A DNA stretch of 13,878 nt from IMG/VR virus record IMGVR_UViG_2802429219_000007; one strand, 5' to 3'. The DNA comes from a virus (Duplodnaviria; Heunggongvirae; Uroviricota; Caudoviricetes). This document shows positions 10,427 to 13,186 of the stretch, piece by piece. Numbering within the stretch: the stretch's first letter is position 1; every line of letters starts with the position of its first letter. Position numbers and translations under genes: made by a program. The notes beneath the pieces were generated by a model. That model had not been told where the DNA came from, did no database searches, and saw only the letters and a list, made by a program, of their open reading frames with translations.

Positions 10427-10951
10427 TTATTGTTTAACCCATAATAATTCATTGACATTGAATCCCAACTTTTGAGCGGTTCGCACATAGTCTGCTTTTA
10501 CTTTATCTGGAATAGTTGGGGTCCTTGCCAGAATCCATAGGTATTCTCTGTTCGGACCACTGACAAGAGCATACTTATACTCATCATCCAGTTTGATTAC
10601 ATTATAGCCACCATAGAAGGGGCCAAAAAACGAAACCTTCAACGCTGCAGTTTTAGTATCTCCAGTAAAGTATGCTTTACCTTCGCTCTCGCTCCATTTA
10701 TTTTTCGTTGGATCGTATCCACGGTTAAGTACACGAATCCCTCCGTCGTTCCGTTTTCCATAGGTAGCGCTGACCTGTTCCAGACCACGTTCGAACCGGT
10801 TCTCGAGGCGAGCTATTTCATACCATTTTCCGAGGTAGCGGTTGGCGTCAAAATTTGTAATCGGCTGCACACCTTTAGGTGGTGTCGGGGCCTTACATGC
10901 TATAAGAGTGAAAGAGAGTGCAATGCCAGTCAACACAGGCCATAACTTCAT
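10427..10951 (-). CDS. Blc-like outer-membrane lipoprotein (bacterial lipocalin)
   Basis: 174 aa; lipoprotein signal with lipobox LIAC; motifs NFDANRYLGKWYEIARLENRFERG, EGKAYFTG, KVSFFGPFYGGYNVI, YLWILARTP closely parallel E. coli Blc as I recall it. Confidence 0.85.
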   Translation of the reverse strand: MKLWPVLTGIALSFTLIACKAPTPPKGVQPITNFDANRYLGKWYEIARLENRFERGLEQVSATYGKRNDGGIRVLNRGYDPTKNKWSESEGKAYFTGDTKTAALKVSFFGPFYGGYNVIKLDDEYKYALVSGPNREYLWILARTPTIPDKVKADYVRTAQKLGFNVNELLWVKQ

Positions 10952-11143
10952 AATAAATCCTGTACTTTTGATAGTTGAGAGTAAGTATGAAAGATAGATG
11001 ATTACGACCGATCACTTAAAGAACTTTCATACTATATTAGGAATAGTCTATAACAGAAAAATTGTCAGTGATGACGCCAGAAAGGCAATTTATTCCGTGC
11101 ACTACACAGTTTATGTGTTAATGAATTAGTCAAGGGGGAGAAT

Positions 11144-12103
11144 ATGATAAAAAAACCTGTGATTGGAATCAGCGGTTGTTTGGCCGGCTCTGCTGTTCGT
11201 TTTGATGGTGGTCACAAAAGAGCTGACTTTTTAATGGACAAATTAGTGGAATAGGTAACATTCAGACCAGTATGTCCGGAAATGGCTATAGGGCTGCCAG
11301 TTCCGCGTCCTGCTCTACGTCTTGTGCGCTCGACGCAAGGAAATATACGGATGTGTTTCAGCCACGACCAGAATGAGGATGTGACAGAGAGAATGACAGA
11401 GTTTAGTCGTTCTTATATGGACAAATTAAAGGATGTATCGGGGTTTGTGGTTTGTGCTAAATCTCCCAGCTGTGGCATGGAGCGCGTGCGTGTCTATGAT
11501 GAAAATGGTAATCGAGGTCGTAAAGATGGAGTGGGACTATTTACGAGCACTTTGATGGAAAAGTTTTCCTGGCTACCGGTTGAAGAGGATGGGCGATTAC
11601 ATGATCCAGTGCTTCGTGAGAATTTTGTTGAAAGAGTTTTTGCTTTGCATGAGCTCAATCACCTTTACAAGGAGAAATTATCAAGAAGAGAGTTATTAGC
11701 TTTTCATAGTCGTTATAAGCTTCAGTTGTTGGCGCATAGTCAGGCAGGCTATAAAGATATGGGACCATTTGTGGCTGCAATACACGAGTGGGCGGACCTT
11801 GAATCATACTTTGAGGTGTATCGTGATAAGCTGATGGCGATTCTCAGAAAACCTGCATCACGTAAAAATCACACGAATGTGCTGATGCATATACAGGGGT
11901 ATTTTAGTAACTACTTAAGTACACGCCAGCGTAAAGAGTTGAGCGAGGTTATACTTAACTATCGTTCTGGCACATTACCTCTTCTTGCGCCGTTGACTCT
12001 GCTGAAGCATTATCTGGGTGAGTATCCTAATGATTACTTGCTTACACAGAATTACTTCGATCCCTATCCGGACGAACTGGCTCTAAGACTGATGGTAAAT
12101 TAA
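11144..12103 (+). pseudogene. DUF523 (TudS-like Fe-S thiouracil desulfidase domain) fused to DUF1722 (YbgA-like), interrupted by an in-frame TAG at 11252-11254
   Basis: ATG at 11144 with SD AGGGGGAG gives MIKKPVIGISGCLAGSAVRFDGGHKRADFLMDKLVE, then TAG; the same frame continues VTFRPVCPEMAIGLPVPRPALRLV...VVCAKSPSCGMERV... (DUF523-like Cys positions) and a C-terminal DUF1722-like region (LLAFHSRYKLQLLAHSQAGY...). The supplied ORF track shows only the downstream 273-aa piece (11282-12103). Confidence 0.6.
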
Positions 12104-12445
12104 TTGTATGCGATATCATCCAAAAGGATGAGTTCCTGCATGCAGGATATTTACAATCGTAAAAACTACACTATGATACCCAGAGTGTCAGTTTGTATAA
12201 AAACTCTGTTTACGCTGAAGAAACCATTGAGATGCAACTTAAAGTTGGTAAACATGCCAGTCAAAATATATAATATTATGATTCCACGCAGCTATATATA
12301 ATATAACAGATTGGTTTAATAATTTGTCTTTGTGAGTTAAATACATAATTTTATACTTGTGATGCAATGAGATTTTCCTTATTGTTGAACTGGCGAATAT
12401 TGATTTTCCACCTATACTTACCTGGTGTAACCCCAATGATATCAG

Positions 12446-13186
12446 GTGGATAATATGCCATACATATGTTCTATCATTTTGGTGTTGAACTCGTTTGATG
12501 TCCGAATTGGTAAAGAAGATATTTTGTTTAAAAAAGGAAGTGCTGTTCTCATTGATTACAATTTAAAAGATTTTTTTTCATCAAATATAGATCATGTAAT
12601 GATCGTAGATGTTGAAGAGAAAACAGTTAATGATTTCTTTAAAAGCAACACACTCTCACCTTTTTCTGTAAGAAGGTTTTATCCGGCATACTTGATGGTG
12701 GAATGTGAAGATTTTTCATTGTTAAAGAACTTGATTGCATGCTTGAATTGTGATGGCAGAACTGTGGATTTTGTTAGAAATCAAATATCACTTGCATGTC
12801 TTGCTATCTTATCTTCAGAGAAAATAGTGCAAAGTTTTTTATTTGGATGTCTTAATAGTTTAGGAAGTAAAGTTAAGGCTATTATTCACACGGATATATC
12901 TGCAGCATGGAGACTTTGTGATATATCTTCAAGACTGTATCTGAGTGAAAGTCTGTTAAAAAGAAAATTAAAGCACGAAGGCTTATCATTTAGTAAGTTA
13001 ATTCTTGAAGAGCGAATGGTGATGGCGGAAAGGTTATTAAGCTACAATTTATATTCTGTTGGAAAAGTTGCTGAGATATGCGGTTATGAAAACACGTCAT
13101 ATTTTGTAAGTGTTTTCAGAAGATATTTTGGTGTTCCTCCCCATCAATATTCATCAAGACTTTTTTTAGAAAAAGACATGATGTAA
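12446..13186 (+). CDS. AraC-family regulator, AppY-like
   Basis: 246 aa, very AT-rich; N-terminal region (PYICSIILVLNSFDV...ILFKKGS...) and C-terminal AraC HTH (WRLCDISSRLYLSESLLKRKLKHEGLSFSKLILEERMVMAERLL...GYENTSYFVSVFRRYFGVPP) resemble AppY-type regulators (recalled, not searched). Confidence 0.7.
   Translation: MDNMPYICSIILVLNSFDVRIGKEDILFKKGSAVLIDYNLKDFFSSNIDHVMIVDVEEKTVNDFFKSNTLSPFSVRRFYPAYLMVECEDFSLLKNLIACLNCDGRTVDFVRNQISLACLAILSSEKIVQSFLFGCLNSLGSKVKAIIHTDISAAWRLCDISSRLYLSESLLKRKLKHEGLSFSKLILEERMVMAERLLSYNLYSVGKVAEICGYENTSYFVSVFRRYFGVPPHQYSSRLFLEKDMM

Follow-up and report, generated by a model that had tools for sequence, protein, structure and literature searches.

The three cargo genes carried between the late antiterminator gene Q and the holin gene of a DLP12-like lambdoid prophage probably form a composite moron cassette, in which a captured lipocalin–rudS pair stands next to a separate, PatE-like AraC unit. 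The prophage was recovered as a 13,878-nt stretch of Caudoviricetes DNA (IMG/VR record IMGVR_UViG_2802429219_000007; hereafter the window, meaning this whole stretch). Its cassette encodes a divergently oriented Blc-like lipocalin lipoprotein, a predicted tRNA 4-thiouridine (s4U) desulfidase, RudS, and an AT-rich AraC-family regulator. These are known kinds of genes and no new kind of system, and two parts of this cassette type, a blc moron and the phage enzyme RudS_vir, are already in the literature. What is new here is the composite make-up of the cassette, the presence of a prophage RudS in about a fifth of Escherichia coli, and a stop codon in the window's rudS.

All three cassette genes are under purifying selection, because their dN/dS ratios between the window lineage and phage 1H12 are 0.06 for the lipocalin gene, 0.10 for rudS and 0.27 for the AraC gene. 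The features of the cassette and its borders are as follows.

9879–10271, plus strand: Q antiterminator (QuuD-like), left border of the cargo slot; Pfam Phage_antitermQ, E = 8.5e-51
10370–10400, plus strand: terminator-like hairpin and T-run just 3′ of Q, placed like lambda tR′; nine-pair stem followed by TTTTTCT
10427–10951, minus strand: Blc-paralogue outer-membrane lipocalin lipoprotein (Pfam, NCBIfam and PDB matches), antisense to late transcription
10952–11143, no strand assigned: divergent intergenic region, 33% GC, with a 22-nt motif at 11027–11048 and a CATACT −10-like box at 10984–10989 (minus strand)
11144–12103, plus strand: rudS, a TudS/DUF523 and DUF1722 fusion of the tRNA s4U desulfidase family (Pfam; identity to WP_000592546.1), with amber codon 37 at 11252–11254
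12150–12177, plus strand: promoter-like site TTTACA-16-TATGAT upstream of the AraC gene, the best promoter-like match (10/12)
12412–12418, plus strand: CTATACT box (sigma-S-like −10), 37 nt ahead of the AraC ATG; an island kept in the window/1H12 alignment, matched by consensus only
12455–13186, plus strand: AT-rich AraC/XylS regulator of the PatE/Psr/AppY/YdeO group (HTH_18 and HTH_AraC matches, full-length homology)
13248–13279, plus strand: terminator-like hairpin (13248–13269) and T-run after the AraC gene
13375–13590, plus strand: holin EssD, right border of the cargo slot; Pfam Phage_holin_2_1, E = 2e-35

A replaceable cargo slot between Q and the holin gene

Genes in the window follow the order cI-like repressor, cro, replication genes, emrE, ybcK, ybcL, ybcM, ybcN, ninE, ybcO, rusA, Q and the EssD holin. 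Comparison with K-12 revealed that Q shares 89% nucleotide identity with quuD as far as position 10253, where homology breaks off, to return only at 13364; the entire Q-to-holin interval is therefore an exchanged cassette. Between quuD and essD, the DLP12 prophage of K-12 holds nmpC, disrupted by IS5, as an earlier note made from the sequence of the window alone had stated. Like the lipocalin gene here, nmpC lies antisense in the slot. The cargo of the slot differs among related prophages (K-12, Sakai Sp4 and prophages carrying a lone AraC gene), and the same replaceable position downstream of Q is used by stx in 933W-type phages. The note's reading of the interval as a site for moron cargo is thus borne out: the cassette comes after the late antiterminator and before the lysis genes, it is replaceable at borders 10253 and 13364, and it carries promoter-like signals (consensus matches only) and terminator-like ones.

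The hairpin at 10370–10400 is followed by a T-run on the plus strand only. When the sequences that follow Q in the window, K-12, 1H12 and Sakai Sp4 were aligned, the late promoter pR′ could not be placed, and only a short ATATAACAG block was common to the window and K-12. In the RefSeq annotation of identical copies, Q starts 15 nt further downstream than in our feature list.

The cassette is common among E. coli prophages

The three genes were found where the earlier note had placed them, in the same orientations, and its description of the cluster as unusual does not hold. At a threshold of at least 80% of the query covered, the trio is present in 992 of 5,426 complete E. coli genomes (about 18%), in up to three copies per genome, and is routinely annotated. 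Counted singly, rudS occurs in 1,022 of these genomes (about 19%) and the AraC allele in 996. The full order of Q, lipocalin, rudS, AraC and holin was retained at 71 of 80 IMG/VR loci, a viral-contig scan that returned near-identical E. coli prophage copies only and is silent on other phage groups. Twelve sequenced phages also carry the cassette, among them the isolate IdasGreatGrand and the 1H12/Lambda_ev set from the infant gut, and so do prophages other than DLP12. The co-occurrence that the note had proposed to look for is real and widespread, and no product of chance.

Cassette sequences fall into three classes, at about 99%, 94% and 89% identity, and the three lineages are separated by dS values of 0.2–0.35. 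Insertion sequences (ISs) lie inside the cassette in several genomes. In BL21(DE3) (NC_012971.2, 1588189–1589207) and related B-strain derivatives, only the lipocalin gene and roughly the first 50 codons of rudS remain, the latter annotated as a "2-thiouracil desulfurase family protein".

The note had further not recognised the combination as a described module. It is not altogether new to the literature: in 2020 blc was named among the lambda morons, with a presence in more than half of 19 lambda phages from the infant gut (PMC6969025), and RudS_vir, which comes from the same cassette type, has been assayed (PMC11417400). Collectively, these observations establish the cassette as frequent, routinely annotated prophage cargo of known gene families.

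The middle gene is RudS by domain content and identity

Homology searches upheld the family assignments that the earlier note had made for the three proteins. For the middle gene, called there a DUF523/DUF1722 gene, the identity stood, and the amber codon had been overlooked. The full frame of rudS spans 319 aa, and the window sequence equals WP_000592546.1 except for the stop. In the intact allele, represented by strain CE10 (WP_000592546.1), the TudS/DUF523 (PF04463) and DUF1722 (PF08349) domains are both complete, with E values of about 1e-40 each.

TudS–DUF1722 fusions have been named RudS and described as [4Fe-4S] desulfidases that turn tRNA 4-thiouridine back into uridine (Jamontas et al. 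2024, PMC11417400). In that study, overexpression of RudS_KT lessened the UVA-induced growth delay of E. coli, and RudS_vir, the gp66 product of phage 1H12, lowered tRNA s4U in E. coli; the cysteines of the RudS_vir cluster are Cys12, Cys44 and Cys110 (PMC11417400). RudS_vir (H3V29_gp66) is closely akin to the cassette protein. It has the same TudS and DUF1722 fusion, the same length of 319 aa and the same three cysteines, all of which are present in the intact cassette allele, and its gene stands in the same Q–lipocalin–rudS–AraC–holin order; the window rudS differs from it in its amber stop at codon 37. With 93% identity between the intact allele and RudS_vir, a cassette-type RudS would be expected to remove s4U from tRNA, a function carried over here from the assayed homologue. 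By these domains and identities the middle gene is RudS, and the note's guess at a function related to nucleic-acid modification came close: the gene, which lies in sense after Q, would encode a tRNA 4-thiouridine eraser. The RudS paper states that E. coli is without RudS and makes no mention of a prophage setting or of the neighbouring lipocalin and AraC genes (PMC11417400).

The stop arises from a single-nucleotide polymorphism (SNP) at 11253 that changes codon 37 from TGG to TAG, and for this reason the list of open reading frames gives only 11282–12103 for rudS. A 61-base probe centred on the SNP matched 1,022 complete E. coli genomes, each with exactly one mismatch, so that the TAG allele occurred in 0 of 1,022 complete genomes; it was likewise found in 0 of 80 viral-contig (IMG/VR) copies. 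The intact protein was annotated in every copy inspected. The closest genome differs from the window by 10 bases and one indel over 13.6 kb. Since no other copy has the TAG allele and the closest genome is near-identical, the stop is either a private mutation or a sequencing error.

If translation began again at Met47 (11282), two of the three cluster cysteines, Cys12 and Cys44, would be missing from the product. We considered whether such a restart could yield a useful YbgA-like protein and rejected the idea, as no obvious ribosome-binding site precedes Met47 and stand-alone DUF1722 is inactive (PMC11417400). The rudS of this window is most likely non-functional.

A photolyase linkage like that of ybgA and phr in K-12 was also rejected, since phr was found within 6 kb of rudS at none of 62 chromosomal loci.

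The lipocalin gene belongs to the Blc family

The 174-aa lipocalin matches Pfam Lipocalin_2 (PF08212; E = 7e-44) and passes the NCBIfam cutoff for the Blc subfamily (NF007786; 316 bits against a cutoff of 267). Among solved structures it matches Blc best (PDB 3mbt, E = 3.5e-69), and it is 60% identical to K-12 Blc (b4149) over the full length, with the two N-termini aligned. These results agree with the Blc-like lipocalin lipoprotein proposed in the earlier note. Read by eye from the translation (MKLWPVLTGIALSFTLIAC followed by KAP), a lipobox L-I-A-C occupies residues 16–19 and is followed by Lys, so that the protein has the lipobox Cys and no Asp at +2, as expected for outer-membrane sorting. 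Fold family and lipoprotein signal are shared with E. coli Blc, whose gene lies beside ampC; the cassette protein is nevertheless a distinct paralogue, prophage-borne and partnered with rudS instead of ampC.

In the divergent intergenic region, the 22-nt motif at 11027–11048 (minus strand GACTATTCCTAATATAGTATGA) lies upstream of the lipocalin gene, about 37 nt upstream of the −10-like box. Alignment revealed the motif to be common to the phage cassette and to chromosomal lipocalin–merR intergenic regions (in locus L032 at about 4590–4615). It may be an operator or the divergent promoter.

Chromosomal loci point to capture of the lipocalin–rudS pair

To trace the pair outside prophages, one genome per species was scanned, which gave 62 chromosomal loci with RudS at 66–77% identity in Citrobacter, Enterobacter, Leclercia, Lelliottia, Kluyvera, Pectobacterium and others. 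A divergent lipocalin gene lies no more than 6 kb upstream of rudS at 42 of these loci, mostly at 77–82% protein identity (69–82% overall). In 36 of the 42 lipocalin-bearing loci the order is lipocalin (minus strand), MerR/MlrA-like regulator, transthyretin-like gene and rudS, and the MerR gene falls between lipocalin and rudS in 39 of the 42; counted across all 62 loci, 43 have a MerR regulator within 6 kb. The RudS–MerR locus of Enterobacter cloacae has been linked to a UVA-induced fall in s4U (PMC11417400).

The chromosomal locus, as found in Enterobacter, Leclercia and relatives, thus has the same divergent pair as the phage. Between the loci of full architecture and the phage pair, lipocalin identity is 77–82% and RudS identity 69–74%, and the upstream motif is kept. 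In Citrobacter sedlakii the lipocalin gene directly adjoins rudS, with a gap of 188 bp versus 192 bp in the window. The phage cassette differs from the chromosomal locus in having neither the MerR nor the transthyretin-like gene, in its lower GC content (44% for lipocalin and rudS, versus 57–59% in two chromosomal loci measured) and in the unrelated AraC gene downstream; nucleotide similarity between phage and chromosome is limited to the coding regions (10418–12105). Since the two genes are paired on chromosomes as well, with near-equal spacing in C. sedlakii and a shared upstream motif, the phage pair looks like a captured piece of such a locus that came without MerR.

A literature search for lipocalins in LitR light regulons returned nothing usable. 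A paper on orf6/orf10 of phiv142-3 and a preprint on gut inflammation, in which host lipocalin-2 serves as a marker, proved to have no bearing on the cassette.

The AraC gene looks like a separate moron

The AraC gene starts at ATG 12455, preceded by an AGGTGG ribosome-binding site, and encodes 243 aa. Its GC content of 31.8% is 12 points below the 44% of the lipocalin gene and rudS. Along with the hairpin at 13248–13269 and 31% identity of the protein to AppY, this matches the AT-rich, AppY-like regulator with its own terminator that the earlier note had described. Identity is higher to Sakai ECs_0287 (54%, with greater likeness in the DNA-binding half) and to ECs_1087 (39%), the gene called psrA (PMC13502914), and the alignments span about 235 of 243 residues. 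The protein misses the NCBIfam equivalog cutoffs, scoring 127 against 348 bits for YdeO, the best of them, and 86 against 500 for GadX. It is, on these comparisons, the orthologue of no named group member.

Of the genes in Sakai Sp1, ECs_0287 (247 aa) alone carries the annotation "transcription regulator" together with AraC-type HTH domains, and we take Sp1 to be the counterpart of OI-8. ECs_0287 is therefore probably PatE.

PatE, PsrB and AppY activate gadE/hdeA and acid resistance (PMC10877973, PMC10057817), and Psr proteins repress type III secretion indirectly. The cassette protein has full-length homology to the probable PatE, to PsrA and to AppY and, like the PatE, PsrA/PsrB and AppY group, its gene is prophage-borne and AT-rich, although it is orthologous to none of them and falls below the YdeO cutoff. 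Given this kinship, the cassette protein would be expected to regulate stress genes of the host in trans, possibly by activating gadE/hdeA.

Several observations set the AraC gene apart from the pair. It was found at none of the chromosomal lipocalin–rudS loci, and homologues at 64% and 56% identity stand alone between a different-family Q and holin in other prophages. The psrA gene of Sakai Sp4, like the cassette gene, lies downstream of an antiterminator gene (ECs_1084, two genes on). Given this absence from the chromosomal loci, the low GC content and the lone homologues between Q and holin, the AraC gene looks like a separate moron and not a proven dedicated regulator. The earlier note's term "dedicated regulator" found no direct support, as the chromosomal loci are without AraC, 43 of 62 have MerR instead, and AraC relatives occur alone in the Q-to-holin slot.

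Within the cassette, conservation is lowest in the 351-bp stretch that separates rudS from the AraC gene: its identity to 1H12 is 66%, with indels, and it contains two conserved islands, at 12150–12177 and 12412–12418.

A PatE-like gene 98% identical to Sakai ECs_0287 lies beside yagQRST/paoABCD in some E. coli (locus L072, GCA_049562335.1 contig, 427–1170), with no visible prophage genes within the 6 kb shown. Read-through from the PatE-like gene into an IS end gives the fusion protein P0020.

Proposed mode of action and competing explanations

Under the composite reading, unit 1 would comprise the divergent lipocalin gene and rudS, derived from an enterobacterial chromosomal locus that the RudS authors linked to the near-UV (UVA) response. 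RudS, holding its [4Fe-4S] cluster through Cys12, Cys44 and Cys110, would convert 4-thiouridine at tRNA position 8 to uridine, as its relatives do, and loss of s4U would lower UVA-induced tRNA cross-linking and growth delay, as shown for relatives. Antisense to late transcription, the lipocalin gene would depend for its expression on a promoter of its own and be active in the lysogen only. Unit 2 would be the AraC regulator, acting in trans on host genes, notably gadE/hdeA of the acid-resistance island; its expression is probably favoured in stationary phase. On induction of late transcription, Q-modified polymerase would read through the antisense lipocalin gene, then rudS and the AraC gene in sense and the hairpin at 13248, into the holin gene. 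Lying after Q in the direction of late transcription, rudS and the AraC gene should be read during lytic growth; they would thus have their own promoters in the lysogen and, in addition, be co-expressed with the late genes.

Several points weigh against this picture. What is said here about regulation of the cassette is inferred throughout. The tRNA activity of RudS_vir was the weakest of the RudS enzymes tested (PMC11417400). No close donor for the pair was found, chromosomal RudS standing at 66–77% identity, the lipocalin at 69–82% and GC at 57–59% (two loci) versus 44%; given this low identity and GC gap, the capture would be old or from an unsampled lineage. The equation of ECs_0287 with PatE, which is probable, is our own and carries no database label. 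Finally, the three genes co-occur almost constantly in E. coli, as the genome counts for the trio (992), the AraC allele (996) and rudS (1,022) indicate. Such tight linkage across lineages at dS 0.2–0.35 would also fit functional coupling; it fits, too, plain physical linkage in a 3-kb cassette between conserved recombination anchors.

Functional coupling is the core of one competing explanation, in which the three genes are a single module and the AraC protein, replacing MerR, is the dedicated activator, or H-NS antagonist, of the lipocalin and rudS promoters. The near-identical counts of trio and AraC allele speak for it, as do the arrangement kept in three lineages despite lambdoid mosaicism, the AT-rich intergenic region (33% GC) and the absence from the phage cassette of the MerR gene that separates the pair at 39 of 42 lipocalin-bearing loci. 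We nonetheless think it unlikely. A 3-kb cassette between conserved Q and holin genes stays linked even without functional coupling, relatives of the regulator are found without the pair, and the pair is found without the regulator both at chromosomal loci (62 scanned) and in some E. coli (H157–H159). Moreover, characterised members of the regulator family target host acid-resistance genes, and conservation within the cassette is at its lowest between rudS and the AraC gene. A different emphasis would make RudS chiefly a servant of the phage: expressed from the Q-dependent late transcript, it would strip host tRNA of s4U in lytic growth, and would thereby either sustain translation when sunlight or UV induces the prophage and cross-links tRNA, or blunt a tRNA-based host response or defence. 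The position of rudS, in sense directly after Q and the tR′-like terminator in the slot used by stx, is consistent with such a role, as is the occurrence of the cassette in plaque-forming phages (IdasGreatGrand and the 1H12/Lambda_ev set). So, too, is the eased UVA growth delay of E. coli overexpressing RudS (PMC11417400). Both versions of this idea are unlikely, however, since the same pair is chromosomal in many species, which makes a phage-specific role unneeded; no match to known defence or anti-defence families was found, and rudS has been lost or truncated without apparent consequence in the window and in BL21(DE3).

A third view, in which the cassette is passenger DNA in decay and does nothing at present, is very improbable, and for the cassette as a whole it is largely refuted. 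The stop in rudS and the IS-cut lysozyme gene of the window, together with the IS insertions within the cassette in several genomes, would suit decay; but dN/dS is well under 1 for all three genes, rudS is annotated intact in every copy inspected, with the amber allele in 0 of 1,022 genomes, and viable phages carry the cassette. In the one strain behind the window, decay of rudS is likely. A more far-reaching version of the phage-serving idea would see the pair as a light-stress module of the phage, in which UV or sunlight induces the prophage, Q read-through floods the cell with RudS, s4U is erased and late proteins are still made, while the lipocalin and the AraC regulator adjust envelope and stress regulons during lysogeny. 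We think this unlikely; if true, strains would differ in tRNA s4U and in their response to UVA according to prophage content, across about a fifth of E. coli.

Two further candidates were set aside. None of the three cassette proteins matched a PADLOC defence model at E ≤ 0.01, and a defence-system reading of the cassette was rejected. An Rfam search of the whole window returned no structured RNA or riboswitch match, and the idea of such elements in the spacers was rejected.

E. coli does carry RudS, as a prophage copy in about 19% of complete genomes, K-12 being without it. With a prophage rudS in 1,022 of 5,426 genomes, the level of tRNA 4-thiouridine and the UVA response may vary among strains with their prophage content. 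The pairing of lipocalin and rudS, apparently taken from a conserved chromosomal locus, offers a lead to the role of the lipocalin paralogue. The regulator adds one more uncharacterised member to the prophage AraC proteins by which acid resistance is rewired, as is type III secretion in attaching/effacing pathogens.

Other features of the prophage

Downstream of the holin gene, in the stretch 13590–13878, the rrrD lysozyme gene is interrupted after codon 54. From 13752 the window continues with the terminal part of an ISEc48-like IS3-family element, which has 96% identity to a Sakai sequence (L079:13850–13976). With rrrD cut by the IS, the lysis cassette of this prophage is broken.

At the other end, positions 1–126 have no counterpart in the closest genomes, which match 127–13751 at 99.9%, and probably represent a mosaic junction left of the cI-like repressor.

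The prophage has a second AraC-family gene, ybcM (7392–8189), whose product is no more than a remote relative of the cassette regulator (22% identity in the DNA-binding domain) and whose regulon is said to be uncharacterised (PMC10057817). Upstream of Q, rusA is intact in the window (9309–9671) and frameshifted in the closest complete genome (strain elppa4; L076, 10683–11046), by one extra G at the site matching window position 9398.

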